64,000 nucleotides of DNA from an uncultured bacterium (GCA_913056395.1 CAJXMG010000001.1:119550-183549); one strand, 5' to 3'. Positions 32,485 through 58,238 are shown, counted from the first letter of the stretch. Notes: generated by a model not told the origin, from the letters alone. Numbers and translations: made by a program.

Positions 32485-32754
32485 GTGTCCAATCCGGATC
32501 GGTATCGCAGGTTGATCGGGGAAGTGGCCCAGGAGATGGGTTACGTTTCCGCCGAAGCTGTCGACGAAGCTTTGTCTGTTCAGGAGAAGCGCCGATCGGA
32601 GGGACTCAAGGTTCCCCTGTTGGGGCAAATCCTGGTTGAGCTGAATCATTTGACCCCGGAACAACTGCAACAACTGATTGAAGTGATCTACCCCGTCGAG
32701 GAAGACGGGGGCGAAGATCCAGATCCCCCCTCAGAGAGCGGTGAGGAAGACTGA
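32485..32754 (+). CDS. Small acidic protein with a tandem MshEN/GspE-N-like motif
   Basis: 89 aa. RRLIGEVAQEMGYVSAEAVDEALSVQ and LLGQILVELNHLTPEQLQQLIEV fit the MshEN pattern RLGxxLxxxGxLxxxxLxxALxxQ. Its stop overlaps the next start as TGATG. Confidence 0.5.
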   Translation: MSNPDRYRRLIGEVAQEMGYVSAEAVDEALSVQEKRRSEGLKVPLLGQILVELNHLTPEQLQQLIEVIYPVEEDGGEDPDPPSESGEED

Positions 32755-34772
32755 TGTCCGCAGACGACGGCAAGAAAAAACGCAGAGTACCTGCACCCAG
32801 AAAAAAAGCCGGTGGTGGGGAAAGCTCCCGAAGAGTTCCACCGAGAAGAGTCGCTCCGGGAAAGAAGCCCGCAACTCCTTCTGAAGAATCGGTCGATTCC
32901 TCCGCTGCAGAAGAAGCCGCAGCAAAGCAAGCCGCAGCCCAGCAAGCCGCAGCCCAGCAAGCCGCAGCAAAGCAAGCCGCAGCAAAGCAGGCCGCAGCAA
33001 AGCAGGCCGCAGCAAAGCAGGCCGCAGCAAAGCAGGCCGCAGCAAAGCAGGCCGCAGCAAAGCAAGCCGCAGCAAAGCAGGCCGCAGCCCAGCAAGCCGC
33101 AGCAAAGCAGGCCGCAGCAAAGCAAGCCGCAGCAAAGCAGGCCGCAGCCCAGCAAGCCGCAGCAAAGCAAGCCGCAGCAAAGCAAGCCGCAGCAAAGCAA
33201 GCCGCAGCGCGTCAGGCTGGTGCTCCCCAAGGAGATACCGCAAAGAAGCCAGCAGTTCCTGCGCGGAAGGCGAGACCTGGCTCGCGGGCACCTGCTGCAA
33301 CGGGATCCGCTGCCAGAGCGGCCTCACCTCGCAAGGGTGCAGGTCGCCGGGGCGCTCCGCCCGCAAGTGCACGTCGCAGGACAGGCGGAGAAGGTGATCT
33401 TGATGAGTTCGAGGGAGATGAGAAAAAATCACCACTGGTGTGGATTCTAGGTGGGGCTGCAGTGGTATTGATCGGTGGATTGGGCATCGTGATGATGTCG
33501 GGTGATGATCCGCCACCTGAGCCAGCCCCCAGCGCCAATACCGCCGCAAACAAACCCAGCCCCAAACAGCAAGAAGAGATTCGTGAGGAGCGGGCCAGAA
33601 AAGCCCTCGACCGGGTCGAGAAAGCAAACTCTGCCAATCCGACCCAACGCTATGAATGTGCAGCCCGATTGCAAATGGTCGCGATCGATTACTCCAATAC
33701 CCAGGCCGGTGCTGAAGCGGGTGAGTTGAGATCCCAACTGCTCAGGACCTGGAATGACGAAGTCGTCGCCGCCTGGAATGCGCTCCGCGGTGATGTATTG
33801 ACCGCATTCAGTGAGGCACGATTTGAGCAGGCTGAGCGCATGCTTGAAGAATTGCCGCCAGTGTTTTTGGGGGCGGCAGACGTTTTGGAGTCTGCATTTG
33901 AAAATGAAATCGATCGACTGCGGAAAGACGCCAAGGCGCAGGCACGTTTCAAGAAACGTCTGGATGAACTCTCGACCAAGGCCGGGGTCTACGCCCGGAA
34001 AGGCTATGAGGACATTGCGATTGCTGTGATCGAAGCCCTCCCCGAAAAAGTGGAGGAAGATGCTCCGGATGTCTGGCGCTTGAAGGAAGAGTTGATCCAG
34101 AAAATTCAGCGTGACGGCCTCGCCTTGTTGATCGAACAGGAATCGGCTCTGGAAGCGGAATTGGCAGAAGCTCGTCGCCTGGAAGAAGAGCGCAAGCAAG
34201 CCGAGCGTATCCGGCGCTGGCAGGAGCTGCGTGACTCTGTCGCATGGAAACCCCTGTTGAGTCGATTCAACCTGTACAACTGGGTGGCCTCCAGCGACAA
34301 GATGTTGGAGAAACCACTCTGGAGGGTTCTCGATCGCAATGGTGCAGGTGTCATGCTGGTGGACAATCGTTCCGGCCGCGATGCCTACACCGGGGTATAT
34401 TCGAACCATTGGGAAGATTATGTCCTCGAGTTTGAGCTCAACCTGAAGGTGGGGGCATTGCGAATTTCCCCGCGAACCCAGGCGAATGCTCAAATGGGGG
34501 CGATCACCGATGGCACTTCACCGCCTTTGGAATTGGGAGACGATTTCCCGAAGAACCGCTGGCTCAAAGTCACCATGGAGGTCAACGGCAACTCGGTGGA
34601 ACTCCGCTACGGCGATTCGGGTAAACGGCTGACCATGGATTCCGAAACAACTCGACTTCCCTCCACCGGTGGTTTTGTGTTTTACGCAGGTGACGGCACC
34701 CGGCTCGAGATTCGTGGAGTCAGGGTCAAGCTGGTCAATGACACCCGTGAGGGGGGAATCTTCGCCAAATAG
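32754..34772 (+). CDS. Bitopic protein: basic N-terminus, ~20 AAAKQ pentapeptide repeats, one TM, ~430-aa C-terminal domain
   Basis: 672 aa. Reads KKKRRVPAPRKKAGG..., then (AAAKQ/AAAQQ) x ~20, then an Arg/Pro-rich linker, a TM (LVWILGGAAVVLIGGLGIVMM) and a helical plus beta-rich C-terminus. Followed by a terminator. Confidence 0.6.
   Translation: MSADDGKKKRRVPAPRKKAGGGESSRRVPPRRVAPGKKPATPSEESVDSSAAEEAAAKQAAAQQAAAQQAAAKQAAAKQAAAKQAAAKQAAAKQAAAKQAAAKQAAAKQAAAQQAAAKQAAAKQAAAKQAAAQQAAAKQAAAKQAAAKQAAARQAGAPQGDTAKKPAVPARKARPGSRAPAATGSAARAASPRKGAGRRGAPPASARRRTGGEGDLDEFEGDEKKSPLVWILGGAAVVLIGGLGIVMMSGDDPPPEPAPSANTAANKPSPKQQEEIREERARKALDRVEKANSANPTQRYECAARLQMVAIDYSNTQAGAEAGELRSQLLRTWNDEVVAAWNALRGDVLTAFSEARFEQAERMLEELPPVFLGAADVLESAFENEIDRLRKDAKAQARFKKRLDELSTKAGVYARKGYEDIAIAVIEALPEKVEEDAPDVWRLKEELIQKIQRDGLALLIEQESALEAELAEARRLEEERKQAERIRRWQELRDSVAWKPLLSRFNLYNWVASSDKMLEKPLWRVLDRNGAGVMLVDNRSGRDAYTGVYSNHWEDYVLEFELNLKVGALRISPRTQANAQMGAITDGTSPPLELGDDFPKNRWLKVTMEVNGNSVELRYGDSGKRLTMDSETTRLPSTGGFVFYAGDGTRLEIRGVRVKLVNDTREGGIFAK
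32916..33209 (+). repeat. Tandem 15-nt DNA repeat (gccgcagcaaagcaa / gccgcagcccagcaa) x ~20
   Basis: Near-perfect head-to-tail 15-mers visible directly in the sequence. They encode the AAAKQ repeats and create spurious ORFs in other frames on both strands. Confidence 0.9.
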
Positions 34773-34821
34773 AAGATGAACGCGGGCTGTCACTCTGGCA
34801 GGCCTGTGCTGAAGAGTCAGA

Positions 34822-34861
34822 GGAGGGGCTGTCACTGTGGCAGTCCCTCCTTTTTCTTTTT
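34822..34861 (+). terminator. Rho-independent terminator
   Basis: GGAGGGGCTG...CAGTCCCTCC hairpin (10 bp, one G-T wobble) followed by TTTTTCTTTT. Confidence 0.6.
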
Positions 34862-35120
34862 CGAAGAGGTTTTCTTAAGTTGCCCTGATTTATAGGTTTA
34901 GAGCAGCGGATTCTGTGGCATATGGCCCGCTCTTTGCTGTGAAGATCATGGCCGCCCATAGTCTGCGCAGGCTTCTGGCAGGTTGATCGCCCGTGATCGG
35001 TCCTCCGGAGCAGGGTCAGAGGGGGTACCCGGCTGTTGCACGGGAACTTTCGGGAAACAGTGATTCCCCTTTTGTGGCGGTGTCCAACTTTGCGAATTCG
35101 AAACAAGAGGAGAGGCTCCA

Positions 35121-36755
35121 ATGGCCAAGGAACTGACGTTTGAGGACTCCGCCAGAGAAAAGCTGCTGAGTGGAGCGGACAAGGTGGCCCGTGCGGTGAA
35201 AACCACACTGGGACCGAGGGGGCGAACCGCCATCATCGATCGATCCTGGGGTGGTCCAAAGGTCACCAAGGACGGTGCGACCGTTGCCGAGGAGATCGAT
35301 CTCGACGATCGCGTGGAAAACATTGGTGCGCGACTGATGCGCGAGGCGGGCTCATTGACGGCGCGTGAAGCCGGAGATGGCAGTACCACTGCCACCGTGC
35401 TCGCCCATGCCATCTTTTCCCAGGGAATGAGACAGGTCGCAGCGGGGGAGAATCCTGTTTTGCTGCAGCGTAGTCTCCTGACCGTCACCGGCAAGATCGA
35501 CAAGTACCTCAGGGAGATGGCTGCCGAGGTGGAGGACTATGATGCCGTGACCAACATTGCCACTATCGCTGCCAACAATGATGAAGCGATCGGCAAATGC
35601 ATCGCGGAAGCTCTCGAGCGTGTGGGTGAGGACGGAGTTTGCAGCATCGAGGAAGGCAAGAGCACGGAAACGGTTCTTGATGTCGTCGATGGACTGCACT
35701 TCGATCGTGGTTACATTTCGCAGCAGTTTGTTACCGACGCCGATTCAGCCTCTATCACTCTGGAGAACCCCTACATTCTGATCATGGAGGAGAAGGTTTC
35801 GAACATCTCCCAGATCCTGCCTGTTCTGGAGAAGGTGGTCGAGAAGAACCAGCCGCTGTTGTTGATTGCAGAGGATGTGGACGGTGAAGCGCTGTCGACA
35901 CTTGTGGTCAACAGTCAGAAGGGGGCCCTCAAGGTCGTAGCCGTAAAAGCTCCCGGATACGGTGATCGTCGCAAGGCGATGCTGGAAGATATTGCTGTCG
36001 CCACCGGTGGCCGTGCCATTTTCAAGGATTTGGGAATTGAGCCTTCCGGCCTGAAGATTTCTGATTTGGGTAAAGCCAAAAAGGTGGAGATCAACTCCCA
36101 GACCACCACGGTTCTCGAGGGTGGCGGGAAAAAGAAGGACATGAAGGAGCGTACTCGCCTGATTCGCATGGAAATCGACAACGCAAGCAGCGATTACGAT
36201 CGAGAAAAACTGCAAGAGCGTTTGGCCCGTCTGGTAGGTGGCGTGGCTGTGATCCGTGTCGGTGGAGCAACGGAGGGTGAGGTCAAGGAGCGCAAGAAGC
36301 GTTTTGACAATGCCTTGTCCGCGACCCGTTCTGCCCTCGAGGCCGGTATTCTCCCTGGAGGTGGAATCGGTTTGATCCATGCCAGTGCGGAAGTTTCGTT
36401 GTCACGATTCAAGAATCCTCTCGACAAGTTGGCCGCAGTGATCCTTGCCAAGGCTCTTGAGGGGCCTTTCCGTCAACTTGCAGTCAACGCCGACCTTGAG
36501 CCGTCCCGTATTCTGCGGGAGATCAAGGCTGAGGAGAGTGAAAGCTATGGCTACGACTTTGCCTCCCTTGATTACTGTGACATGTATGAAAATGGAATTA
36601 TCGACTCCTGTGCGGTGATTTGCAGTGCCCTGCAAAATGCGGTGAGCACGGCAACGATGCTTCTGACTTCGAATGCGGTCGTCACCGACATTCCGAAGGA
36701 GACTGAGGAAGATGATCATCACCACCATGACCACGAAGGCGTTGGCGCATTCTAG
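35121..36755 (+). CDS. groEL: Chaperonin GroEL (paralog 1, His-rich C-terminal tail)
   Basis: MAKELTFEDSAREKLL...GPRGRTAIIDRSWGGPKVTKDGATVA, AGDGSTTATVLA and GGGIGLI motifs. The C-terminus is EEDDHHHHDHEGVGAF rather than a GGM tail. Confidence 0.9.
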   Translation: MAKELTFEDSAREKLLSGADKVARAVKTTLGPRGRTAIIDRSWGGPKVTKDGATVAEEIDLDDRVENIGARLMREAGSLTAREAGDGSTTATVLAHAIFSQGMRQVAAGENPVLLQRSLLTVTGKIDKYLREMAAEVEDYDAVTNIATIAANNDEAIGKCIAEALERVGEDGVCSIEEGKSTETVLDVVDGLHFDRGYISQQFVTDADSASITLENPYILIMEEKVSNISQILPVLEKVVEKNQPLLLIAEDVDGEALSTLVVNSQKGALKVVAVKAPGYGDRRKAMLEDIAVATGGRAIFKDLGIEPSGLKISDLGKAKKVEINSQTTTVLEGGGKKKDMKERTRLIRMEIDNASSDYDREKLQERLARLVGGVAVIRVGGATEGEVKERKKRFDNALSATRSALEAGILPGGGIGLIHASAEVSLSRFKNPLDKLAAVILAKALEGPFRQLAVNADLEPSRILREIKAEESESYGYDFASLDYCDMYENGIIDSCAVICSALQNAVSTATMLLTSNAVVTDIPKETEEDDHHHHDHEGVGAF

Positions 36756-36761
36756 AAATAG

Positions 36762-38378
<1,617 letters not shown>

Positions 38379-38387
38379 GGGAGTTGC

Positions 38388-39509
38388 ATGGCAACCAGGG
38401 ATTACTACGACGTTCTCGGAGTCGATCGCGATGCGAGCGACTCCGAGATCAAAAAAGCCTATCGAAAGATGGCTCTCAAGTATCACCCGGATAAAAATCC
38501 CGGGGATGAAGCTGCTGAGAGGCATTTCAAGGAAGCGGCTGAGGCCTATGAAATCCTCAGTGATTCCGAGAAGAGAAAAATCTACGACACCCATGGTCAT
38601 GATGGACTCAGCGGCATGGGGGGTGGTGGAGGCTTCTCCGACATCGAGGATATCTTCCGCAATTTCGGAGATATTTTCGGCGGCGGTGGTGGAATCTTTG
38701 GAGACATCTTTGGTGGAGGTCAGGGGGCTGCCCGCAGGGGAGAAAGCCTTCGGGCTCATGTCACGATTTCCCTTGAAGCGGCCGCCAGCGGAACCAGCAA
38801 AACGATCAGGTTGAGACGCAAGGTTCATTGCGGACCTTGTTCCGGTAGCGGAGCAGCAGCGGGAAGTCGCCCCGTAACCTGTAACACCTGCTCCGGCCGT
38901 GGTCAGGTATTGCGTTCTCAGGGTTTCTTCAGTGTTCGCAGTGCATGTCCCACCTGTCAGGGGCAGGGGGAGATCATCGAAAACCCTTGCAAAACCTGTC
39001 AGGGAGCAGGACTCGAACAGAAGAATGAAGAGATCGAGATCGAAATCCCCGCGGGTGTTGAAGAGGGAATGATTCTCCGAGTCACCGGCAGGGGTAATGA
39101 AGGTGCTCGCGGAGTCCCTGCAGGGGATTTGCAAGTCGTCATCGGCTATGAGCGTCATGCCTTTTTCCAGCGCGTCGATGATCATGTCGGATTTGAACTT
39201 CCTGTCTCCTATTCCCAGGCGGTGCTCGGTGCAGATCTGGAAGTCCCCACCCTTGAGGGGAAAGCTGTATTGACCGTTCCCCCGGGTACACAAAGCGGTG
39301 AGATCCTGCGTATGCGAGGGATGGGTTTCCCTTCAGTGCATTCCCGTCGCAGCAAGGGGGACCAGTTGGTCGAAGTGACCATCGAGGTTCCCAAAAAGGT
39401 CAGTGACGAACAGGAAGAGTTGTTGAGGCAACTCGCAGAGATTGAAGAGACTGAAGTCGGTGCTAGAAGGAAGGGATTCCTTGATCGCTTCAAGGAATAC
39501 TTCGGTTAG
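38388..39509 (+). CDS. dnaJ: Molecular chaperone DnaJ
   Basis: J domain with HPD (YHPDKNP), a G/F-rich region and four CxxCxGxG zinc-finger repeats. Confidence 0.9.
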
Positions 39510-39519
39510 GAGCCGAACC

Positions 39520-40128
39520 ATGGAAACCAACAAGCAGGACACATCGATGGAGCATGAAGGTCAGCCTGAAGAGACCCAGCAATCAGGTGAGGGGCAGGAA
39601 TCTGTCAATCAACAGGAAGCGGTCGATCAGGAGTCCCCTGAAATGGGGGAGAAAGACACTGAGACCGTTGAGCAGGATCCTGAAGAAGAGAAGGCTTTTC
39701 TTCTCGATCAGCTTCAGCGTGCACACGCAGAGTTAGCCAACTTTCGCCGCCGAACCCTGGAAGATCAGTCTACCCAGCGATTGCGAACGACCGTTTCAGT
39801 TGTCAGGTCATTTCTACCTGTTCTCGACGGTCTTGAGGCAGCAGTAAAAGCCGGGGCCGACGAGGGCGGTGAAGAAGCCATCCGCGAGGGATTGGCGATG
39901 ATCGCCGAACGCGTGGATTCGGTTTTGAAGGACCTCAAGGTCGAAAAAATCGATTCCAAAGGGGAAGACTTCAACCCTGAGTTGCACGAAGCGATGTTGC
40001 AGGTGGATCAACCGGATGCACGTCAGGGTGAAATCGTCGAGGAAGTTGAAAAGGGTTACCGCTGCGGAGACCTTTTGGTCAGGGCTGCACGAGTCGTAGT
40101 TGCCCGCGGCAGTGAATCTGCTGAATAG
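39520..40128 (+). CDS. grpE: Nucleotide exchange factor GrpE
   Basis: GrpE helical N-terminal motif (ELANFRRRTLEDQ) and C-terminal beta domain (GEIVEEVEKGYRCGDLLVRAARVVV). ATG 39520 is preceded by TAGGAG; the ORF-track start at 39442 overlaps dnaJ. Confidence 0.75.
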   Translation: METNKQDTSMEHEGQPEETQQSGEGQESVNQQEAVDQESPEMGEKDTETVEQDPEEEKAFLLDQLQRAHAELANFRRRTLEDQSTQRLRTTVSVVRSFLPVLDGLEAAVKAGADEGGEEAIREGLAMIAERVDSVLKDLKVEKIDSKGEDFNPELHEAMLQVDQPDARQGEIVEEVEKGYRCGDLLVRAARVVVARGSESAE

Positions 40129-40136
40129 AGATACTC

Positions 40137-40421
40137 ATGCCAACATATGATTATGTCTGTGATGAATGTGAGCACTCCTTTGAGGCTTTTCAGAGAATCG
40201 ACGAAGAGGTTCTGACAGATTGCCCGGAATGTGGCAAATCTGCATTGCGTCGTCTCTTTGGCGCAGGCAGTGGACTTCTCTTCAAGGGGTCAGGCTTTTA
40301 TGAGACTGATTACCGCAGCGACAACTACAAGAAGCGTCAGAAAGAGGACAAGCCCGAGTCCAAGACCAAGTCGGAGGCTTCGAAGTCCTCGAAGAAAGAT
40401 AAGGGAAAGAGTTCCTCGTGA
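40137..40421 (+). CDS. FmdB-family zinc ribbon protein
   Basis: MPTYDYVCDECEH...CPECG CxxC...CxxC zinc ribbon, with a lysine/serine-rich tail. Confidence 0.65.
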   Translation: MPTYDYVCDECEHSFEAFQRIDEEVLTDCPECGKSALRRLFGAGSGLLFKGSGFYETDYRSDNYKKRQKEDKPESKTKSEASKSSKKDKGKSSS

Positions 40422-40624
40422 GTCGATCTTCGAAGTGCCCTGTTTGTAGGGAGCCGGTGGAGGAAACGACCGGGGAGACGCAGCCGAGGATCTTTCCTTT
40501 CTGCAGTGAATCCTGTCGTGACCGCGATTTGGGAGGCTGGTTGCAGGATCAGTACCGTCTGGGATCCCGTCCCCTGGAGTCAGACGAGGTGGATGGATTT
40601 ACGGACACGCCAGCGGGGGATTGA
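40418..40624 (+). CDS. yacG: DNA gyrase inhibitor YacG-like zinc finger protein
   Basis: CPVC...PFCSESCRDRDLGGW matches the YacG signature (CPxC-x-PFCSxRCxxxDLGxW). 68 aa. Confidence 0.65.
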   Translation: MSRSSKCPVCREPVEETTGETQPRIFPFCSESCRDRDLGGWLQDQYRLGSRPLESDEVDGFTDTPAGD

Positions 40625-40674
40625 GTCGCTTCGGCAAGTTGGCAACAGCTGCTGTTGCTGACTATTGGCATCAG

Positions 40675-40716
40675 AAAAGGCCCGGGAGCGAATCGCTCCC
40701 GGGCCTTTTCTTTTTC
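40675..40716. terminator. Bidirectional rho-independent terminator between convergent genes
   Basis: AAAA-GGCCCGGGAGCG-aat-CGCTCCCGGGCC-TTTTCTTTTTC. Perfect 12-bp stem flanked by an A tract and a T tract. Confidence 0.75.
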
Positions 40717-40734
40717 TTTGGTCCAGATCGAGTC

Positions 40735-41352
40735 TTACTCGCCAGCCTGATTGACGAGACGCTTCGGAAGAACCCGGCCTTCCGGCAGTTCGTCAGCATT
40801 GACTTTCTTCACGTCACCACCGGCGTAGACGACCATGACAAATCCCTCATGGTTCTCTTCAATCCCGTTTTCCTTGTCAGCGATGGAATCATCACTTCCG
40901 AGTGCGGTGTCGGTGGCAGTCGAGGACTTGGTGCGCTGACCGAGCCATGCGTAAGAGCAGGAGTCCTCATCGAGAACGAAGTTGCCGTCGGCATCTTTTT
41001 CGGCTGCAACCTCAAGAGAAGAGGGGCAGATGAAAACTTCCGGGCTCAGATCGGAGCCTTCTCCCGAGCTGACCAGCACATTCAGGGACTCGTAAGCGGG
41101 AGGGTTCTTGCCTTTGGCTACTGGGAAGAATCTTTTATCCAGTGCATAGGCGATCGCCGACTGGCCCATGTTTCTGAGATTGTTGGTGCAGCTGACTTCG
41201 TCACCCTTGCGCAGTGCACTCAGGATGTTTCCGGAGAAGAGTGCGGCGAGGGTTCCGATGATGGCGATAACCACCAGCAGCTCGACCAAGGTGAATCCCT
41301 CTGCGCCTCTTCCTCGAAGGGATGCGCTGTCTTGCAATGATTGCTGTTTCAT
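40735..41352 (-). CDS. Prepilin-type N-terminal cleavage/methylation domain protein (pseudopilin-like)
   Basis: N-terminus reads GFTLVELLVVIAIIGTLAALF immediately after a short leader. ~205 aa. This class is abundant in Planctomycetota and Verrucomicrobiota (DUF1559-like). Confidence 0.8.
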   Translation of the reverse strand: MKQQSLQDSASLRGRGAEGFTLVELLVVIAIIGTLAALFSGNILSALRKGDEVSCTNNLRNMGQSAIAYALDKRFFPVAKGKNPPAYESLNVLVSSGEGSDLSPEVFICPSSLEVAAEKDADGNFVLDEDSCSYAWLGQRTKSSTATDTALGSDDSIADKENGIEENHEGFVMVVYAGGDVKKVNADELPEGRVLPKRLVNQAGE

Positions 41353-42073
41353 GAAGTCTCCTTCCGGGAGTCCTGATTAAATGGGGTTCGTGACAGTACT
41401 GGAGCGGGTCTCAAGGTAGGGCCAGCCACCGCAAACAGGAATGTTTCTGTCTGAGGATCGATTGGGCTTCTCCGATCTCGATCTGTGCCAGAGGGCTTCC
41501 CCTTGCCCCCTCAGGCGACCTTTGTCCAGTTCACTGTTGAACTTGCGTGGGTCAGACGGGGGAATTCTTTCCTTTTCCCAAATCTGCCCTGACTAAGCGA
41601 GCATCATAAGCCGGATTTTTACGGATTACCACCCTACCGGGGACGTTGACACCCTCGATGGGGGATTGCTATGATTCTGGCTTCATCCCTGCGAAGATGA
41701 TCATTCGAGCCCTTGCTTTGGATAGAGGCAGGATAGAGGCCGGAAGGGTGCCCGAAACAACGGGATTCTCTTGAGGTTGTGCTTTTGCCGGGATTGAAAG
41801 CGGAAGGAAAATGGTTCGGGGAGGCCCGATTGGCGGTGGATCCGTCGATGGGCCGTCAGGATTCGAACGGGCTGTCTCGCTCGAATCGCTGCTGTTGATT
41901 CTGGTTCTCTTCAGAGGATTCTCCGTATTGGGGCCTGAAGTGAAGTGGATCATCGGTTTTCGTCCTGGTTTTCTGTCTTTGGTGTTACAGCACCGCAATT
42001 CAAAGTACTGTGAATCAACTCAAGGGGAGGCATTTTGCGATCCTCTTTCAGACACACGAGATACGACGGAGTA

Positions 42074-43098: not shown

Positions 43099-43171
43099 GA
43101 CCTGATTGGACTGCAACCGGATTTTTTCCAAGTCCGGCTTGTGATTCGATATTGAGTGGAGAACCGAGCCC

Positions 43172-44380: not shown

Positions 44381-44412
44381 CAGTAAGTTGTCGTCTCTGT
44401 TAAGACTCTGAA

Positions 44413-46669: not shown

Positions 46670-46675
46670 CTCCGC

Positions 46676-48469: not shown

Positions 48470-48507
48470 TTCCGGGATTTTTCACATGTTCGAGAGGAAG
48501 GGATGCG

Positions 48508-49926: not shown

Positions 49927-50852
49927 TGTCAGCCCTGCGAGGACAGGTCATCTTCAGGTCCAGCAGAGAAGTTCGTGTTCTTCACGAAGGAGAGGTCTTT
50001 CGCTGTGATCTCGCTGGTCGCCTGAGAAAAGCGGGGGCTAATCCCATCGTTGTAGGGGACTGGGTTGAGTTTGAGCGTAATGAGAACACGGACGTCGAGT
50101 CGGACGGTCGTGTCCTTTCGGTTGAGGAACGCAAAGTTTGGTTATCACGCAGGCGTGACGTCGGCAAAGCACGTGAACTGATTCTCGCTGCAAATGTCGA
50201 CCAGGTTGCAGGCGTTTTCTCTGTCAAAAAACCTCGAATCAAATTCGGGGCGCTTGATAGAATCTTGATGGCCAGTGAATGCATGTCGCTTCCTGCTTTG
50301 GTGGTCATCAACAAGACAGATCTGGGGATACCTGACGAAATTGAGGACAGACTCTCTGTCTACCCGGATTTGGGGTATGAAATCCTGCGCACTTCCGCTG
50401 AGACAGGTGAAGGTCTCGATTTGCTCGAGAAAAAACTTCGTGGAAAAGCGACGGTGTTGTCTGGTCCCAGCGGAGCAGGTAAATCTTCGTTGATTTCAAA
50501 GGTGCTGGGAATTGATCTGAAGACGGGTGAAGTCAGTGAGCACAATGAAAAAGGGAAGCACACGACCACAGCCGTGACATGGCATCCGGGAGCCGCTGAT
50601 TCTGCCATCGTTGATACACCCGGTTTTCGTGATTGGGCTCTATGGGGCCTGGAGCCCAGAGAACTGGCCCATTGGATGCCGGATCTCAAAAGACATCTTC
50701 ACGATTGTAAATTCAACGACTGCATGCATCGGGAAGAGCCGGGTTGTGGCATTCTGGGAGCTGTTGAGAGTGGGGATCTGGACCCCCGTCGTTATCGATC
50801 CTATCTCGGAATACTGGAGTCGGTGCTGGAGAGAATCGAAAGGGATCGTTAA
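49923..50852 (+). CDS. rsgA: Ribosome small subunit-dependent GTPase A
   Basis: Circularly permuted GTPase: NKTDL comes before GPSGAGKSSL. C-terminal zinc finger (HDCKFNDCMHREEPGC). ATGA overlap with purB. Confidence 0.8.
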   Translation: MMSALRGQVIFRSSREVRVLHEGEVFRCDLAGRLRKAGANPIVVGDWVEFERNENTDVESDGRVLSVEERKVWLSRRRDVGKARELILAANVDQVAGVFSVKKPRIKFGALDRILMASECMSLPALVVINKTDLGIPDEIEDRLSVYPDLGYEILRTSAETGEGLDLLEKKLRGKATVLSGPSGAGKSSLISKVLGIDLKTGEVSEHNEKGKHTTTAVTWHPGAADSAIVDTPGFRDWALWGLEPRELAHWMPDLKRHLHDCKFNDCMHREEPGCGILGAVESGDLDPRRYRSYLGILESVLERIERDR

Positions 50853-50919
50853 TCCGGTTTTTTTCAAGGGATCAGGCCTTCTGCAATCGTCATACAGGCA
50901 AGAAAGTATTGGTTAGCCA

Positions 50920-51504
50920 TTGAATCGCCATGAATCGGAGTCAGTGGAAAAGTTGGTGCGTCGGGCAAAGTCCGGTGACCGCGAAGCTTTTCGTCAACTG
51001 GTTCTGCAGTACCAGCGAATCGCTGGAGGAGTGGCATACGGAATTTTGAGTGATACTCACCTTGCTGCAGATGCGGTTCAGGATTCTTTCGTTCACGCAT
51101 GGCAAAAATTAGGGCAACTAAAGGAAAATCAAAAGTTCAAAAGTTGGTTTCTGATGATTGTTCGTTCGAGGGCAATCGATTTGAAAAGGCGAAGATTCTC
51201 AAAGGTCAGGGAATCTTTCAGCATCGATGAGTCTATCGATTCCAGTGCTGAAAAAGGACCTGCTGAAGAGTTGGAAACTCGGGAGAGATCGCATTTGATC
51301 CGTGAGATGTTTCGTGAGTTGCCGGATGAGTATCGTGAGATTTTATTGCTCAAACACCAGTTGAAGCACAGTTATCAAGAGATCGCAAAAATTCATGGGA
51401 CAACACCGAAGGCGGTGGAATCAAAATTGTCCAGAGCCCGAAAGTTGCTGGCTGAGAAGTGGCAAAAACTCCAGGACATTGAGTCAGGAGATTCCAATGG
51501 TTGA
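50920..51504 (+). CDS. ECF-type RNA polymerase sigma-70 factor
   Basis: Sigma region 2 (FRQLVLQYQRIAGGVAYGILSDTHLAADAVQDSFVHAW) and region 4 (YREILLLKHQLKHSYQEIAKIHGTTPKAVESKLSRARKLL). TTG start. Confidence 0.8.
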   Translation: MNRHESESVEKLVRRAKSGDREAFRQLVLQYQRIAGGVAYGILSDTHLAADAVQDSFVHAWQKLGQLKENQKFKSWFLMIVRSRAIDLKRRRFSKVRESFSIDESIDSSAEKGPAEELETRERSHLIREMFRELPDEYREILLLKHQLKHSYQEIAKIHGTTPKAVESKLSRARKLLAEKWQKLQDIESGDSNG

Positions 51505-52525
51505 AAACAGGGATTGCGAAAACATTCGTCACTTGATTTCTCTGGAACTCGATAGCGAGATCCATGATCAGCAAAGAGTTCAATTAGATGCGCATCTTGA
51601 TGACTGCAAGGAGTGCAGAGAGTGGGAGCGTTTGCTTCAATCAGGGTTGGAAAACATCGACACCGATTTCAGTGAGGTTTCCGGTGAACTGGATGATCTG
51701 CTTCGGGAAAACCTGAAAACCTCTGATCTCTCTGATCCGAAACCTGAAGACACGGAGTCCCGCCATGGAGGTGGAGTTGCGGCCTCCAGGCTCTCTTTGG
51801 TCTTAATGTTGATTGCTTTGACAGTGATCGGTTACCTCATGCGATCTGAAACGCCCACAGATCGATACCCAGTGACAGCTGAAATCTCGGGAATGTCGCT
51901 CATTGAAAGCCAGGGAGAGGTCAAAAATATCTCAGGGAGCGAGATGGCTTCGCTTTCATTTCAGGTTGGTGAAACGCTGACCTGCAATGAAGGGAGTGCA
52001 CGCCTGCTTGACGACAACGGATTTGAGGCTGAGGTTTCATTTGAATCGGTTGTTACGTTGAGATCACCTCGGGAATTCCGGATTCATCGGGGTGAGGTAC
52101 GCTTCACACTGAATCCGGGGGAGGGCAGGCTGAAAGTCAGCACTGAGGAAGTGGATGTTTCAGTGGTGGGGACAGAGTTTATTGTCCGCCGATGGGACAA
52201 AGTAGGGAGAACCGAAGTTTTTGTGCTGGCTGGAGAGGTCATGGTTCAGTGGGGTAAGCGAATTCCATTACCGGTCAGGGCAGATGAATGGGTAGAAGTT
52301 TCAGGCAGAGGGTTCATGTTTCACTCCAGTCGAGAACCGGTTTTGACCCCTTCTGGAGATCCGATTTCCCGCCCAGATGCAGGTATCGGTGGAGAGCAAC
52401 CTGATAGCGAGAGACTCTTTAGGGATATTCCAAAGAGAAGTGTTGTAGACGAGAGTGATCAAAAACCACTCGACATGCCTTTACGGCAACCGAAGGAGTC
52501 GAACCCGGATGGAGAAGATGGTTGA
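51497..52525 (+). CDS. Anti-sigma factor (zinc-finger N-terminus, TM, FecR-like C-terminal domain)
   Basis: ATG overlaps the sigma stop by 8 nt. HxxxCxxC zinc anti-sigma motif (HLDDCKECREW). TM (LSLVLMLIALTVIGYL). FecR-like beta region. Confidence 0.65.
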   Translation: MVENRDCENIRHLISLELDSEIHDQQRVQLDAHLDDCKECREWERLLQSGLENIDTDFSEVSGELDDLLRENLKTSDLSDPKPEDTESRHGGGVAASRLSLVLMLIALTVIGYLMRSETPTDRYPVTAEISGMSLIESQGEVKNISGSEMASLSFQVGETLTCNEGSARLLDDNGFEAEVSFESVVTLRSPREFRIHRGEVRFTLNPGEGRLKVSTEEVDVSVVGTEFIVRRWDKVGRTEVFVLAGEVMVQWGKRIPLPVRADEWVEVSGRGFMFHSSREPVLTPSGDPISRPDAGIGGEQPDSERLFRDIPKRSVVDESDQKPLDMPLRQPKESNPDGEDG

Positions 52526-52531
52526 AGCAGA

Positions 52532-53452
52532 TCAATTCGACTTCAGGGAGATATCCGTCGACTTCTTGAGTTCATACACACGACCATTGATCAGTCGCAC
52601 ATGGCGATCCTGATAAGTCCACTGTTCAATCATTTGTTGATCTATTCGAACCCAGTCTACCTTTTGTGGGTCTCCCCAAGCAGATCGTACAGACTTTCTC
52701 TGGCTACCAATTCCTACGGGAGTGTTTATGGATTTTCTTGAGGTCTTTTTGAGCATTTCGTTCAAGCCGTGCCTAGTCTGATTTAACAGATTCGATCTAA
52801 TTTCCGAGATAAACCCATGGGGTGTTGCAACCAGACCAAGGCTTTTTGCTAAATCACTAGAGGATATCCAAGTTGAATTAAAGGGGTGCAATCCAGCAAG
52901 GGAAGCCGCCTTTTCAATTTTAGACACCTCGATCAAACTCGATAATTCTGGTGAACCAGAAAAGAAATCGCCACCCAGTCTTAACCATTCAGCTTGATGA
53001 TCCGAGGATCCCGTACGAAGAGACTTCCACAATTCCCATCTTTCAGAAGAGTTGGATTCTCTGACCAGGAATCTGTCAATAGCACTGACAAGATTCACGT
53101 CCGAGTTAGCGAGAGCTTTCTCCCTGGCTACCATTTGTTCTTCTATCACCACGGAGATGGGGACTTCTCCGAGGTAATCAACAATCTCGAGTTGGTCCCC
53201 ATGATTCAATAATCGTACATTCAGACATGAATCCTGATTTTGATCACTGATTCGTGGTATTTGGATCTTATGGGAGACGAGTACCTCTTGCTTGATACCT
53301 GAGATACGAACGGAATTTCCTACACGCTCTAATAATCGGGTATACACCTTTGCATGAGGGGGAGAGAAGTGGTTTATCTGATCACTGACACACTGGTTTT
53401 CAGGTTGTGCAGCAAACCCTAAGGTTACGAGAAGTGTGAATTGTAAAAACAT
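52532..53452 (-). CDS. Secreted hypothetical protein
   Basis: Signal peptide (MFLQFTLLVTLGFAAQP). Lower GC than flanking DNA. Its start is adjacent to the stop of the upstream 976-aa gene. Confidence 0.45.
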   Translation of the reverse strand: MFLQFTLLVTLGFAAQPENQCVSDQINHFSPPHAKVYTRLLERVGNSVRISGIKQEVLVSHKIQIPRISDQNQDSCLNVRLLNHGDQLEIVDYLGEVPISVVIEEQMVAREKALANSDVNLVSAIDRFLVRESNSSERWELWKSLRTGSSDHQAEWLRLGGDFFSGSPELSSLIEVSKIEKAASLAGLHPFNSTWISSSDLAKSLGLVATPHGFISEIRSNLLNQTRHGLNEMLKKTSRKSINTPVGIGSQRKSVRSAWGDPQKVDWVRIDQQMIEQWTYQDRHVRLINGRVYELKKSTDISLKSN

Positions 53453-56382
53453 TAATTCTGCTCCTTCACAACACAGAGTGTTCCATCTGATAGACTGACC
53501 AGGATTTTCCCTGAATCGATTACACTCATATCATTCGCTTGTGCACCAAGAGCTACTTCTCCCATTAAATTACCGACAAGGTCAAATAATCGTAAAATAC
53601 CATCTTCACCAGCAACCCAAGCAAGGTTGGTATTTGTTGAGTGTCTAAGAGGGGAGCATGTACTCGAGATAGAGAGTGGATTTTCCTGGAAATCTTGCCC
53701 AGTCACATGGACCCAGCCTTTTGATGAATTGTAGAAGGTGATGTCATTAAATGATCTCGGTGTCGATTTGGGTGTCGGAAGGTCTTTGATTTTTCCATTA
53801 AACCAATTGTTTTCATCTCGGAACAACTTGCTGACCTCTGTCAGAGTGCTGTAGTGGTCTGCAGGGATCACGTAGGGAGACGATAAGACTTCTCCCAAAC
53901 TTGTGAAGTGCTGGCAATTTCTCATAGAGTCTATGGCAATGATTTCGCTTGAATCGACTTCAATGAGAGAAGCGATTGGAGCAGGCATTTTCTGAGTATG
54001 AATCCGTCTACCCTTAGAATTATGAAAGTAGATGTTTCCGTTTGCATCGCCGAGGACCCACCTGTTATCGCCAGAAGGGGTAGCGCTGGTCCACGGGGCA
54101 TCATTGAGCGAGCCAATTGGTTTAGATTTTCCATTTCGAGAAAACACAACTGGTTTGCCAGCAAGTGGCAATGCCAAAATCTCTTTGTCTGACATGAAAA
54201 GTTTAGGTGCAGGATGTCCCTCTATACCTACAGAATAGGTTTGTTCAGCATGTAAGAGATCTTTACTCAATCGGGTGACTTTTCCATTCCTGTCAGAGGT
54301 GAAAATCCAATCCCCGATTACTGCTAAGTGCTCTGCAGAATCCGCGACCTTCATGGTTTGATCGGGGCTCCTTACAAGTGAGACCAATAAATGTGGAACC
54401 GTGTCTGCCGTTACTTTTATTTTTCTTGATCGGCAACCTTTTTTCTCAAGTATGACTTCCGAATACTCATGATCAGAAAGTGTTAGGATCAATGGGCTTT
54501 TACCCAACTGATTGCCCATACTGTCAAGAATTCTTGCACCCGCGGGTATGCTTTCGATTACTACGGGGTAACGAACCATGTTAACGAGGTCACTTGGAAG
54601 TGTCTTTAGATCAAGTTCTGCGATGTCGTCGACTAACGCCCTTGCTTTCAGAGGCTGCCCCTCTTTAAGCAGTTGGTTTGCTTTTGAAATGGCCGTTTCC
54701 ACCTTATGCCTAAGACTCTGACGCTGAAAGCGGGCTTCTTCCCTGGCTCTATGTAGGTTGTCTTTTTCAGAAGTGATCTCATTGGAGATCAACTTACGCA
54801 TTCTAATAGCATTTTCAGAGCCACTTCTCGCTGAAAGAGTCCATGGGTGGATTTGATTAACTCGTTCATAAGCTTCTGCAGCAGTGATGTACTGGTGGAT
54901 TGCATTTGCGTCTTTTTCGATTTGCTTGGCTGCTACGAGCATCCCTCTGGCTCTCCATTCGGAAGAGATAAAATAAATCAAAACAATACAAAGCAGTGAC
55001 CCTACTGAAATCGTAGCGACTTTTTTTCTTTGCTTGTTTGCTTCTATCTCATTCTGTCTCTGGAGAATTTCTTCAAGCGTCTTATCATCCAAGCCCTGAT
55101 CAGGGCTCAGAGACCTGAGTACTTTTTCTGCTCTAAGTGCAATCTCTGGGGATTCTTTCTGTGATAATGCGATCGCTTTTCTAAGGCAATCTTGAGCTTC
55201 GGGTGATTTGGTTTTGTAAAGGGCTTCCCCTAGTTGGAGCCAATACGCCGCTTCTTTACCTCGAAGATCTTCCGCTTCTTTGAGAACAGTCGTCAATTTT
55301 TGATAGTCGCCGTTCTTTCGTAAAGCTTTGCAAAGATCTTCATGGATTTGAGGGAGCTTTTTTGTGGGAATGGCGTCGCGGATTTGCCAGCAGGTCAATA
55401 AATCTTCAATTTGACCTGTTGTTAGAATCAATAAGCGCTGTAACTTCTTCCAAGCTTCTTTCTTTTCACCTTTGGCTAGTAAGAGCGAGACTATTTTTCT
55501 TAGAAAATCAGTCTGAATTTCTGGGTTCGCATGTCCTGCGCAATCACTCGCCTCTTCAAGCAAATCCATCGATACGTCAGAGTTTTGTACTTCCAGCAGA
55601 GTTTCATAAAGCGCCAAGGCTGACTGTGGAATTTCAGAGGCTCGATCTCTTGCCCTACGAATCATCTCATTCGTATCAGCTTCTCGTATGATTTTTTCCT
55701 CGAGAAATCTGTAAACTACCATGCACGTGTCAAACTTCGTGAGGGGGGATGACTCGAGAATCTCCTCAAGAGTACTTTTTCCATCAACCAGCTTGTAGAT
55801 TGCATGGTTCTCTGCAGGTTGTGGGGCTCCTTCAACTGGAATAAGAATCCACTTAAAGTTCTTTATTCTTTGGCGAATCACTGTCCATTCATCTGCCTGG
55901 CGAAGGCCTTCGATGATGACACTCATTGGGTCAACTTGAATCCGTGTGACGTGAGACGCATCGTCTTCATTCGTTGACTTCAATTGTTCTGGAAAAAATT
56001 CAAAGTTTCCTTTTGTCCATAAAAAAAGATCGAATAGTTCTTCTTCGATTTTTTTTCTTAATGCTTTTTCAAGGGCTTTCTCTTCAATGAAGCCTCGGTC
56101 TATCAATGCACGCCCGAGCAGGATTCCTGTTTCCTCATGATCCTTACCAGCCTGTTCGAGTTCCTCAGCTGAGACGAGACCTTCTCTGAGTAAAATGCTT
56201 CTCAAGCGGAGTTGTCTCGAAGATCCGGTTCGCACAAGAGTAATGTGTCCGGTTTCGAAAACTATCGACACCTTTTCGTCATCACGACAAATCTCAAGAG
56301 TTCCTGAACGAGCCCCTTGTGAAAGTGTCTGCAGGAGTTCCTGCAGTCCGAAGTGCTCAAGGTGTCCTTTTAAGATGCTCAT
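53452..56382 (-). CDS. Large multidomain protein: DUF4388, MshEN-like motif, TPR-like helical region, TM, C-terminal beta-propeller
   Basis: N-terminal DUF4388-like region (LKGHLEHFGLQELLQTLSQGARSGTLEI...). MshEN-like LRLRSILLREGLVSAEELEQA plus ILLGRALIDRGFIEEKALEKAL. One TM (VATISVGSLLCIVLIYFISS). C-terminal repeated propeller blades. Lower GC than flanking DNA. Confidence 0.6.
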   Translation of the reverse strand: MSILKGHLEHFGLQELLQTLSQGARSGTLEICRDDEKVSIVFETGHITLVRTGSSRQLRLRSILLREGLVSAEELEQAGKDHEETGILLGRALIDRGFIEEKALEKALRKKIEEELFDLFLWTKGNFEFFPEQLKSTNEDDASHVTRIQVDPMSVIIEGLRQADEWTVIRQRIKNFKWILIPVEGAPQPAENHAIYKLVDGKSTLEEILESSPLTKFDTCMVVYRFLEEKIIREADTNEMIRRARDRASEIPQSALALYETLLEVQNSDVSMDLLEEASDCAGHANPEIQTDFLRKIVSLLLAKGEKKEAWKKLQRLLILTTGQIEDLLTCWQIRDAIPTKKLPQIHEDLCKALRKNGDYQKLTTVLKEAEDLRGKEAAYWLQLGEALYKTKSPEAQDCLRKAIALSQKESPEIALRAEKVLRSLSPDQGLDDKTLEEILQRQNEIEANKQRKKVATISVGSLLCIVLIYFISSEWRARGMLVAAKQIEKDANAIHQYITAAEAYERVNQIHPWTLSARSGSENAIRMRKLISNEITSEKDNLHRAREEARFQRQSLRHKVETAISKANQLLKEGQPLKARALVDDIAELDLKTLPSDLVNMVRYPVVIESIPAGARILDSMGNQLGKSPLILTLSDHEYSEVILEKKGCRSRKIKVTADTVPHLLVSLVRSPDQTMKVADSAEHLAVIGDWIFTSDRNGKVTRLSKDLLHAEQTYSVGIEGHPAPKLFMSDKEILALPLAGKPVVFSRNGKSKPIGSLNDAPWTSATPSGDNRWVLGDANGNIYFHNSKGRRIHTQKMPAPIASLIEVDSSEIIAIDSMRNCQHFTSLGEVLSSPYVIPADHYSTLTEVSKLFRDENNWFNGKIKDLPTPKSTPRSFNDITFYNSSKGWVHVTGQDFQENPLSISSTCSPLRHSTNTNLAWVAGEDGILRLFDLVGNLMGEVALGAQANDMSVIDSGKILVSLSDGTLCVVKEQN

Positions 56383-56497
56383 CTTTCAACTTCCGTTTTG
56401 GTACCGCTGGTACTCTTATCTGGAGGTCGAAAGGTGCTGTATCCCATCTGTATCAGAACGGGTAGCATCTTCAGTAGACCTCGAATAAGGATACAAA

Positions 56498-57706
56498 ATG
56501 GATGCCAGATCAACCAACTGGGGATTTAACAGTGAGAATGGGAGATGTCATTATAATGCCTCTCCGGGCCTCTACGTGCATGTCCCGTTTTGCCGCAGCA
56601 GGTGTACTTATTGTGATTTCCACGTGGCAGCTATGCGCCCGACAGTGATGGTTGACTATATTGAGGCTTTGAAATCCGAAATCGATCAAGTCGCAAATTC
56701 TGGCTTCATTCCGAAAACGATCTTTATAGGAGGCGGCACTCCTAGTGCTCTTCCCCAAGAACAATGGATTCAGCTCCTGGAAGCTCTTGCAGAGTCATTT
56801 TCCGATTCATTAGTGGAATGGACCATCGAGGCGAATCCGGAGTCGATCAATCCCCAAAAAATTAAAGCGGCATTACAAGCTGGCGTGGATCGATTCAGTA
56901 CCGGTGCACAGACCTTTTCAGAGAAGGGGCTTTCCTTGATGGGGCGCAGGCATAATGCGCAGAGGGTTGTGGAAGTACACCGGTGGTTTGAAGAGTTAGG
57001 AGTTCCTCGAACTAGCCTGGACATTATTGTGGGTTGGCCCGGACAAGATCTGGAGTCTATCGATAATGACCTTGCTGCAGTTGAGCGGATTGATCCGGAC
57101 CACATTAGTCTCTATCACCTTAGTTATGAATCAGGCACTTGGTTGCACGCAATGCGGGAACGAGGTGGGTTGAAGCCATTGCTGGACGATACCTGTATAA
57201 AATTCTCCAATGCTTTTCTCAGTGGTTTGAGATTGCAAGGCTATCGGCGATATGAAGTTTCTAATTTGGAGAAGCGGGGAGGTGTCTCCTGGCACAACCT
57301 GAATTATTGGCAACGGGGTGAGTATTGGGGGATTGGAAGTGGAGCTGCTTCATTTATTGAAGGACAAAGGTGGAAAAACAAGCCTGACGTGGGGGCTTAT
57401 ATCGCAGCTGGTGGTTCACCTGAGCGGATAGACCTCGAAAAGTCTGGTGAATTGGACATTGTCGTTGAGTTGATCATGTTGCAGTTGAGATTGTCCTCCG
57501 GTTTAGACCTCAATCATTTTCGGAATCTGACGAAACACCAGTTTAAGGATCTCTGCAAAGGGAGTTTGCGTAACTTCACTGAAAAGGGTTTTCTTACAGA
57601 GGAAGCGGGCTATGTGCGCGCGACTCAAAGGGGATTCGACGTTCTCGATTCGATGATCCTGCAGTTTGTGGAAGATGCCGAAAAGAGATTGAATGCGCGA
57701 ACGTGA
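56498..57706 (+). CDS. hemW: Radical SAM heme chaperone HemW / HemN-like
   Basis: CxxxCxxC radical SAM motif (FCRSRCTYCDF). HemN-like C-terminal domain. ~400 aa. Confidence 0.75.
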   Translation: MDARSTNWGFNSENGRCHYNASPGLYVHVPFCRSRCTYCDFHVAAMRPTVMVDYIEALKSEIDQVANSGFIPKTIFIGGGTPSALPQEQWIQLLEALAESFSDSLVEWTIEANPESINPQKIKAALQAGVDRFSTGAQTFSEKGLSLMGRRHNAQRVVEVHRWFEELGVPRTSLDIIVGWPGQDLESIDNDLAAVERIDPDHISLYHLSYESGTWLHAMRERGGLKPLLDDTCIKFSNAFLSGLRLQGYRRYEVSNLEKRGGVSWHNLNYWQRGEYWGIGSGAASFIEGQRWKNKPDVGAYIAAGGSPERIDLEKSGELDIVVELIMLQLRLSSGLDLNHFRNLTKHQFKDLCKGSLRNFTEKGFLTEEAGYVRATQRGFDVLDSMILQFVEDAEKRLNART

Positions 57707-58238
57707 TATTCCGTTGGTGGAAATCAGCCTTGCGGTGAGATTTCTGAGGCAACGCGATTGGCTCGACAGCGAAGTCCTGGACCGCTTGCTGGCTCTCCGA
57801 GAGTCCAGAAGCGGACTGAACGGATTATTGGGGGTGATTCAGGAAGAGGCCCTTCTCTGTTCAGATAGAATTGAATCGCTGGTCAAGAGAGTCCGAAATC
57901 AAATGCGCCGAATCCATGCTGAGTTGCCCGAAACACGGGTTTTCGACGGAAGGTTTGGCCGAATCGCCCTTTCTGCAGGTTGGATCTCCCACCAAGACTT
58001 GGAAAATGCCCTTTTGGAGCAATCCCGATTGAGGCGAATCGGCCTCAAATTTCGATTGGGTGAAATTTTATTCAAAATGGGCCTTCTCAGTCGTCAGCAG
58101 GTTGAGTCGGTTCTCGAGCAGCAAGGTCAGCGATCCAAAACATGCCCAGGTTGCCAATCTGTAGCGCCATTCACGGCAGAAATCTGTCATTGCGGGCAAA
58201 TTTTGCAGTCTGCTCCACTTCTGTGCCCTGTCGTCTAA
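57693..58238 (+). CDS. MshEN-like domain protein with C-terminal Cys4 zinc ribbon
   Basis: RFGRIALSAGWISHQDLENALLEQ and RLGEILFKMGLLSRQQVESVLEQQ both fit RLGxxLxxxGxLxxxxLxxxLxxQ. C-terminus reads CPGCQ...CHCGQ. Overlaps the hemW stop by 14 nt. Confidence 0.5.
   Translation: MRERDIPLVEISLAVRFLRQRDWLDSEVLDRLLALRESRSGLNGLLGVIQEEALLCSDRIESLVKRVRNQMRRIHAELPETRVFDGRFGRIALSAGWISHQDLENALLEQSRLRRIGLKFRLGEILFKMGLLSRQQVESVLEQQGQRSKTCPGCQSVAPFTAEICHCGQILQSAPLLCPVV

Follow-up and report, generated by a model that had tools for sequence, protein, structure and literature searches.

The stretch of DNA considered here, called the window in what follows, is a segment of 64,000 nucleotides from an uncultured bacterium (GCA_913056395.1 CAJXMG010000001.1:119550-183549), and it encodes three proteins with a module related to MshEN_N, the 53-residue four-helix bundle that binds one cyclic di-GMP (c-di-GMP) in MshE, PilB and PilF (PMC5013675, PMC11731258). 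The three open reading frames (ORFs) had been named in an initial annotation, and they are present at 32485-32754 (plus strand; P1, 89 residues), 53452-56382 (minus strand; P2, 976 residues) and 57693-58238 (plus strand; P3, 181 residues), each with two tandem 24-residue half-motifs. The reading favoured here, with moderate confidence, is that of three architectures with one MshEN_N-type bundle each, in which P3 and P1 are likely c-di-GMP adaptors and the copy in P2 has degenerated.

Detection of the MshEN_N Sub-Domain

A custom hidden Markov model (HMM) was built from 16 MshEN_N sequences, all from outside the window (MshE, PilF-B, PilF-C, planctomycete and Omnitrophota PilB N-termini, and entries of the alignment of Wang et al.), and applied to the 907 six-frame stop-to-stop segments of at least 40 residues in the whole window. 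P1 scores 46.1 bits, P3 39.0 bits and P2 33.3 bits, while the next segment scores 2.0 bits; the value for P1 is a slight overestimate, since some of the training sequences had been recruited through their similarity to P1. The 53-position NCBIfam model NF053729 ('cyclic di-GMP-binding domain, MshE-related'), which has a cutoff of 38 bits, gives 38.4 bits for P2 (residues 62-110) and 38.1 bits for P3 (residues 87-144), both above the cutoff, and 36.9 bits for P1, just under it. When the sequence of P3 is searched against the PDB, it finds PilF of Thermus thermophilus (6f8l, E 6e-8) and the isolated c-di-GMP-binding domain of PilF (8pfa, E 2e-3), and the profile of the P1 family finds 6f8l with E 1.3e-10 and MshE of Vibrio cholerae (5htl) with E 2.6e-5. 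The remote tblastn matches of P1 fall on the first ~60 residues of Phycisphaerae PilB/GspE ATPases of 576-614 residues, with 43-50% identity.

The literal pattern by which the module had been described, RLGxxLxxxGxLxxxxLxxxLxxQ, has an exact match in none of the six copies. Nearest to it are the two copies in P3, one with F for L at position 2 and the other with V for L at position 17. When every 24-mer of the six frames is given a crude position-weighted score, these two copies, both with 15/15, are the only ones to stand out; the copies in P1 and P2 score 10-12, which is the noise level of random frames, and they are separated from it by profile methods only. It could be argued from these numbers that amphipathic helical hairpins have come to look alike by chance, through composition or low complexity and not through homology, and such hairpins do give spurious partial matches to FumaraseC_C. 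This explanation is effectively refuted by the gap of at least 31 bits between the three ORFs and all other segments of the window, by the matches to PilF in the PDB at E 1e-8 to 1e-10, and by the tblastn search, which leads straight from P1 to PilB N-termini. The segments in P1, P2 and P3 are, almost certainly, homologous to bona fide MshEN_N. Partial Pfam matches of MshEN_N hairpins are seen also with DUF4388, at profile positions about 33-76.

The profile check by PF05157 that had been proposed for the three proteins gives no match at E<=10 for P1, P2 or P3 in the Pfam scan. In a positive control, PF05157.20 covers residues 68-156 of genuine PilB ATPases, i.e., a region C-terminal to the motifs, and the Pfam model of the time was reported to leave out the binding site along with the first three helices (Wang et al. 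2016 supplement, PMC5013675). Since PF05157 lies downstream of the motifs, its failure to match is uninformative on their presence, and from the same placement follows that Pfam-based censuses overlook proteins with MshEN_N only. PF05157.20 ('MshEN') spans residues 66-159 in PilB/MshEN proteins of three other loci (L028 7974-9737, L032 2887-4638 and L041 8001-8453). The MshEN call of the initial annotation is therefore borne out by the custom HMM, NF053729 and the PDB matches, in the restricted sense that P1, P2 and P3, judged from their sequences, carry the MshEN_N sub-domain only and are without MshEN_C/T2SSE_N1. The half-motifs are separated by five residues in P2, 10 in P3 and 11 in P1, and the canonical spacer of five is found in P2 only; PilF GSPII-C, which is a binder, has a spacer of seven, and a length of five is thus not absolute.

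P3 and the Long-Spacer Family

P3 has a degenerate MshEN_N at residues ~5-75, an intact long-spacer unit at residues 87-144 (57951-58124, plus strand) and a zinc ribbon at its C-terminus. In the intact unit, motif I, RFGRIALSAGWISHQDLENALLEQ (57951-58022, residues 87-110), and motif II, RLGEILFKMGLLSRQQVESVLEQQ (58053-58124, residues 121-144), are joined by the conserved 10-residue spacer SRLRRIGLKF. In an alignment of 13 P3 sequences, positions 2, 3, 17, 21 and 24 are kept in both motifs, with L or I at position 2 of motif II, and position 1 is R, K or A in motif I and R in 12 of the 13 in motif II. The zinc-ribbon label given to P3 earlier is supported by the cysteines C151-x2-C154 ... C165-x-C167 in residues 148-172 (58134-58208, plus strand), of which C151, C154 and C165 are invariant and C167 nearly so, and by a weak match to UPF0547. 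The AlphaFold2 (AF2) model from the same alignment has a predicted local distance difference test score (pLDDT) of 80 and consists of eight helices and, after them, a small beta ribbon, with two short strands in the zinc-ribbon segment; the fold of the model is MshEN_N-like.

When the profile of this alignment was searched against 1.84 billion cluster representatives, 2,555 matches were obtained at E<=1e-3, 701 at E<=1e-10 and 25 at E<=1e-30; some of the weaker ones are probably generic MshEN_N proteins and not P3-type modules. Among the best 148 of the 2,555 matches, 104 have the tandem motif followed by CxxC...CxxC. The 10-residue spacer is present in 97 of these 104 representatives, and Gln24 is kept in 94 of them in one motif and in 103 in the other. 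They divide into 46 stand-alone proteins (<=260 residues) and 58 longer ones, and among the latter are 27 with a Ser/Thr kinase, seven with FGE-sulfatase, three with HisKA+HATPase_c and three with Amidase_2. The first unit is canonical MshEN_N in most relatives and degenerate in the lineage of P3, which otherwise fits the family pattern (a unit, a unit with a 10-residue spacer, and CxxC...CxxC within ~12 residues) save for a second knuckle of the form C-x-C. P3 belongs, by these matches, to a large family of the architecture (degenerate MshEN_N)-(long-spacer MshEN_N)-(zinc ribbon), either stand-alone or N-terminal to Ser/Thr kinases, histidine kinases and other outputs. The long-spacer and zinc-ribbon module occurs also together with TPR regions, sometimes in two or three copies per protein. 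Pfam has no model for the module, which gives partial DUF4388 and FumaraseC_C matches only, and no paper was found that joins 'MshEN' with 'zinc ribbon'.

The start of P3 overlaps by 14 nucleotides its upstream operon partner hemW (56498-57706, plus strand), which encodes a radical-SAM heme chaperone (TIGR00539, 227.6 bits against a cutoff of 205.4). The divergent arrangement, with P2 on the minus strand and hemW-P3 on the plus strand, is kept in five loci from different samples.

P1 and Its Neighbour p672

P1 has a GTG start with a Shine-Dalgarno-like AAGGAG a few bases upstream. Its half-motif I, LIGEVAQEMGYVSAEAVDEALSVQ (32512-32583, plus strand, residues 10-33), is preceded by an invariant DRYRR, and its half-motif II, LLGQILVELNHLTPEQLQQLIEVI (32617-32688, plus strand, residues 45-68), follows after an 11-residue spacer (residues 34-44). 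In 20 orthologs half-motif I keeps L1, I or F at position 2, G3, G10, a hydrophobic residue at position 17, L21 and Q24. Half-motif II keeps L1, L2, G3, L or V at position 17, and I21; position 24 is I or L and not Q, and position 10 is N in the window and G in 14 of the 20 orthologs. The AF2 model (17 sequences, pLDDT 76) has four helices (residues 4-18, 23-38, 46-52 and 58-68) in an MshEN_N-like fold, and residues 74-89 form a disordered acidic tail.

The match of the P1 and P3 families by hhalign (97.3% probability, E 1.7e-11) spans 62 columns with one gap and pairs residues 6-68 of P1 with residues 83-144 of P3. In P1, as in the second P3 unit, helix 2 is extended and the spacer has the pattern Q-x-R-L-R-x-x-G. 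From this match and the shared spacer follows that P1 is a stand-alone copy of the long-spacer unit of P3.

The stop codon of P1 overlaps, as TGATG, the start codon of p672 (32754-34772, plus strand), which encodes a membrane protein of 672 residues with a very basic N-terminal region, one transmembrane helix and an extracytoplasmic C-terminal part without convincing family match. A repeat of 20.5 copies of a 15-nucleotide unit at 32902-33208 encodes (AAAKQ)n in this protein. The overlap is found in 21 of 21 related loci, either as TGATG or as ATGA, and these two forms rule out that P1 is a frameshifted N-terminus of p672. The gene order murC-murB-p280-P1-p672-groEL-groEL is kept in 19 species-representative metagenome-assembled genomes (MAGs) and in two metagenome contigs; among the loci of the 19 MAGs the identity is 57-94% for P1, 40-87% for murB and 30-88% for p280, a gene for a membrane protein of 280 residues. 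That an acidic tail of P1 stands opposite a basic N-terminal region of p672 is suggestive for the proposal, given below, that P1 acts on p672 as an adaptor.

A paralog of P1 with 89-96 residues, 35% identity and the same long spacer is encoded at L026 7926-8216 and L027 7947-8216 (MAGs bin129 and MCMED-G47). In L026 it lies directly upstream of lpxK, in a lipopolysaccharide-core cluster that also contains an hldE-like gene and one for a heptosyltransferase, and it is a second small MshEN_N protein linked to envelope biogenesis.

The Alpha-Clip of P2

The DUF4388 label that P2 had received is confirmed by PF14332, which matches with 96.9 bits (E 1.1e-27) and pairs residues 5-166 with profile positions 1-121 of 122; the orthologs of P2 carry the annotation PatA_N. 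Beyond this PATAN/DUF4388 domain, the membrane protein has TPR-like helices, a hydrophobic stretch interpreted as a transmembrane helix, a weak PEGA match at residues 607-671 and a C-terminal repeat region. The first ~190 residues are far better conserved among orthologs than the whole protein, for which the value is 55%. A word-indexed homolog search with the N-terminus of P2 returned two proteins only, and the orthologs used here were taken from contigs that had been found through P3.

The MshEN_N-like copy of P2 (56050-56208, minus strand, residues 59-111) is, by its place in the domain, the alpha-clip insertion of the PATAN domain. Its motif I, RLRSILLREGLVSAEELEQAGKDH (56137-56208, residues 59-82), has R for G at position 3, G for L at position 21 and H for Q at position 24, and its motif II, LLGRALIDRGFIEEKALEKALRKK (56050-56121, residues 88-111), which is preceded by the spacer EETGI, has K for Q at position 24. 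The relation of the alpha-clip to the starts of GspE and PilB has already been published and is a known part of the finding: Makarova et al. 2006 are named in the Han et al. preprint as having observed that alpha-clip repeats occur also at the start of the ATPases of type II secretion systems and type IV pili. Furthermore, PATAN-type sequences stand unlabelled in the MshEN alignment of Wang et al., where they start near residue 50-58 and end with '...LF.W'. A search for 'DUF4388' together with 'MshEN' found only the ComFB paper and preprint, neither of which links the two domains.

Ligand-Contact Positions and Predicted Binding of c-di-GMP

To see which residues matter, consider the complex of MshE with c-di-GMP (Wang et al. 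2016, PMC5013675). The Arg at position 1 stacks on guanine, and Leu2 packs into a hydrophobic cluster with the other half-motif's Leu17 and Leu21. Gly3 recognises O6/N7 of guanine through its backbone NH, Gly10 makes the turn between the helices, and Gln24 contacts the ribose-phosphate; the substitutions G11L and G40I abolish binding. Position 1 has since been widened to R/K/L, and a Leu there raises the affinity (Neissner et al. 2024, PMC11731258). The contact positions scored here are accordingly R/K/L at position 1, a hydrophobic residue at position 2, Gly3, hydrophobic residues at positions 17 and 21, and Gln24, in both half-motifs, which gives 12 positions per unit. In P3 (13 sequences) all 12 are kept and the turn Gly10 is not conserved. 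In P1 (20 orthologs) 11 of the 12 are fixed or conservatively substituted, the exception being the second Gln, which is I or L. In P2 (five orthologs) eight of the 12 are kept, and the four losses are all fixed.

On this ground P3 is predicted to bind c-di-GMP, by a narrow balance of the evidence, and P1 is a possible binder for which the balance leans slightly to the negative side. For P2, which has lost Gly3 to Arg, Leu21 to Gly and both Gln, the prediction is that canonical binding does not occur, and we consider binding by it improbable. The retention of the contact residues in P3 and P1 is what leads to the proposal that these two are c-di-GMP-dependent adaptors.

Several points weigh against this proposal. 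Binding of c-di-GMP by any long-spacer MshEN_N is so far a prediction. An ideal motif is no guarantee of binding, because PilF GSPII-A stays non-binding even after its consensus has been restored; its site is blocked by an elongated, capped helix 1 and by inter-subdomain contacts, and its Ala3 obstructs the pocket (Neissner et al. 2025). Helix 1 begins 6-8 residues before the motif in the AF2 models of both P1 and P3, and the turn Gly10 drifts, both in the P3 family and in motif II of the P1 of the window, where it is N. A Foldseek search of the PDB with the whole P3 model gave nothing significant. Among the window genes scanned, none encodes GGDEF, EAL, HD-GYP or PilZ, and the window thus gives no indication of its own that the host makes c-di-GMP. 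Finally, the partners assigned to P1 and P3 are taken from gene order alone.

From a part of these points a different explanation can be constructed, namely that none of the three proteins binds c-di-GMP, and that their MshEN_N bundles are ligand-independent 'landing pads' for other proteins. PilF GSPII-A and XpsE have the motif and do not bind, spacers of 10-11 residues are unlike those of every structurally characterised binder (5-7 residues), helix 1 is predicted to reach upstream of the motif in both models, the turn Gly of P3 is not conserved, and enzymes of c-di-GMP turnover are missing among the scanned genes. If the fold alone were under selection, however, one would hardly expect what is seen in the families: relatives of P3 at 28-31% identity keep position 2, Gly3, the hydrophobic residues at 17 and 21 and both Gln, and the orthologs of P1 keep the contact positions save the second Gln, while the turn Gly, which makes no contact, drifts. 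This is the pattern expected from selection for ligand binding, and the position of the module in front of kinases is typical of sensor domains. The absence of binding in all three proteins is for these reasons held to be rather unlikely.

The opposite extreme is that P1, P2 and P3, the DUF4388 protein included, all belong to one family of c-di-GMP-responsive adaptors, as the initial annotation had suggested. NF053729 scores all three, and imperfect motifs can bind, since a binding screen picked up Bd1509 and Bd1596. In P2, however, the Arg at Gly3, the Gly at Leu21 and the His and Lys in place of Gln are fixed in five orthologs; in GSPII-A an Ala at position 3 is enough to obstruct the pocket, and G11L and G40I abolish binding in MshE. 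Outside the module, moreover, the three architectures are unrelated, and they are not one adaptor family. What stands of the suggestion is the mutual homology of P1 and the second unit of P3, from which the PATAN alpha-clip of P2 is set apart; as a statement about all three proteins it has little probability. The recurrence of the module in stand-alone and fused form, which had also been pointed out, is real and had already been published.

Host and Gene Neighbourhood

By a scan of species-representative genomes, the window belongs to a clade of uncultured marine Planctomycetota. The ortholog of P1 in MAG MCMED-G47 is 94% identical to that of the window, UBA1146 MAGs are among the more distant relatives, and the GC content of the window is 53.7%.

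The division and cell-wall (dcw) or peptidoglycan cluster of the window (19205-32352) runs from mraZ to murC and murB and ends with p280, which stands at the usual place of ftsQ. P1 had been called 'post-ftsQ', a label that could not be verified: p280 has no match to FtsQ or POTRA in Pfam or NCBIfam; ftsA and ftsZ were not found after p280 in the cluster. For p280, p672, p306, p196 and p304 there is no convincing match in Pfam, NCBIfam or the PDB. A gene for a LysM protein (28502-29185) lies directly 5' of murC and has a counterpart between murG and murC in a related locus (L002). On the other side, at 35121-40421 (plus strand), are two tandem GroEL paralogs followed by dnaJ, grpE and a gene for an FmdB-type zinc-ribbon protein, and the groEL pair is present 3' of p672 in every related locus that is long enough to show the region. 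An ECF (extracytoplasmic function) sigma factor gene and a zf-HC2/FecR anti-sigma gene (50920-52525, plus strand) adjoin the p306-P2 pair, and in the loci L005 and L006 a sigma/anti-sigma pair is found at the same place. An FHA-Ser/Thr kinase protein of 855 residues is encoded at 10937-13504 (minus strand).

Discussion

The favoured reading can be put as a mechanism in the following way. P3 and P1 would probably be small adaptors that depend on c-di-GMP, each acting on a conserved partner to which it is coupled in translation. For P1 this partner would be p672, the membrane protein encoded where the peptidoglycan/dcw cluster ends, and the action may be a response to c-di-GMP. P3 would act together with HemW, and the neighbouring PATAN protein P2 is a further possible partner: PATAN domains bind residues 1-366 of PilB1, its N-terminal half and the ATPase end that carries the MshEN domains (Han et al. 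preprint), from which a contact between P2 and P3 becomes conceivable. The alpha-clip of P2 is itself most likely a ligand-independent structural or protein-contact element, like PilF GSPII-A and XpsE. In its most far-reaching form, the proposal would say that P1 and p672 make up a c-di-GMP-controlled switch at the end of the dcw cluster of FtsZ-less planctomycetes, and that the long-spacer unit, whether or not a zinc ribbon goes with it, is a widespread input domain which has escaped recognition and which connects c-di-GMP directly to kinases of the Ser/Thr and histidine types and to proteins of envelope biogenesis; this version is regarded as unlikely.

In the study of c-di-GMP, far more enzymes that make or break the messenger are known than receptors for it. 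Most non-ATPase MshEN proteins have never been assayed. If modules of the P3 type bind c-di-GMP, an input signal could be predicted for some 2,500 protein clusters, and among the best matches are many Ser/Thr or histidine kinases whose N-terminal region has no Pfam model. If P1 binds, a clade of FtsZ-less uncultured marine planctomycetes has a second-messenger receptor that is hard-wired to the operon for cell-wall synthesis. If neither P1 nor P3 binds, it follows instead that the 24-residue motif, taken by itself, over-predicts receptors. No literature specific to c-di-GMP and division in planctomycetes was found.

That three MshEN_N proteins lie within 26 kb of a planctomycete genome is one more example of a pattern already on record. 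What is modestly new is the coherent long-spacer subtype, its architecture with a zinc ribbon and its frequency at the N-terminus of kinases, and the rigid linkage of P1 to the dcw cluster.

Comparison with Known Systems

With MshE of V. cholerae (5HTL) and GSPII-B/C of T. thermophilus PilF (8PDK) the proteins of the window share the two tandem 24-residue half-motifs, and P3 and P1 share with them also the start (R/K/L)-hydrophobic-Gly, the hydrophobic residues at positions 17 and 21, and Gln24. Unlike MshE and PilF, they have neither an MshEN_C/T2SSE_N1 sub-domain nor an ATPase, and the spacer of P3 and P1 has 10-11 residues, where that of MshE has five and that of GSPII-C seven. P1 differs from MshE further by the missing second Gln, and P3 by the Phe at position 2 of motif I and by the turn Gly, which is not conserved.

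The PATAN domain of P2 may be compared with those of PixE, PixG and PatA in cyanobacteria and of FrzS-type proteins in myxobacteria. P2 agrees with them in matching PF14332 end to end and in having a two-hairpin insertion at the place of the alpha-clip. It differs from them in being a membrane protein of 976 residues without REC and with TPR, PEGA and a repeat-rich C-terminus. Its alpha-clip retains neither Gly3 in motif I nor either of the two Gln, and the best analogues of this alpha-clip are PilF GSPII-A (9G1W) and XpsE-N of Xanthomonas campestris (2D28), which have the same fold and a recognisable motif with deviating key positions, and which have been proposed to be 'landing pads' for proteins. 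These analogues stand at the N-terminus of pilus or secretion ATPases, whereas the copy in P2 lies inside a PATAN domain.

The motif has been found in more than 10,000 proteins, with up to 22 in one genome, that of Myxococcus xanthus (Wang et al. 2016, PMC5013675); a later count for M. xanthus is 17, most of them never assayed, PilB and MXAN_7500 included. Among the many architectures with MshEN_N only that are listed by Wang et al. (2016, Supplementary Table 4) are the stand-alone (MshEN_N)2 of cce_1044, REC-MshEN_N in Bd2402 and MshEN_N-AAA_31 in EpsG, and the table contains also (MshEN_N)2-CheX and fusions to Ser/Thr kinases. Absent from it are a single-unit protein of 89 residues with an acidic tail, like P1, and the order (degenerate unit)-(long-spacer unit)-(zinc ribbon), like P3. 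Shared with these architectures is the principle itself, which is that of a portable regulatory module, used stand-alone or in fusion, and several times in one genome.

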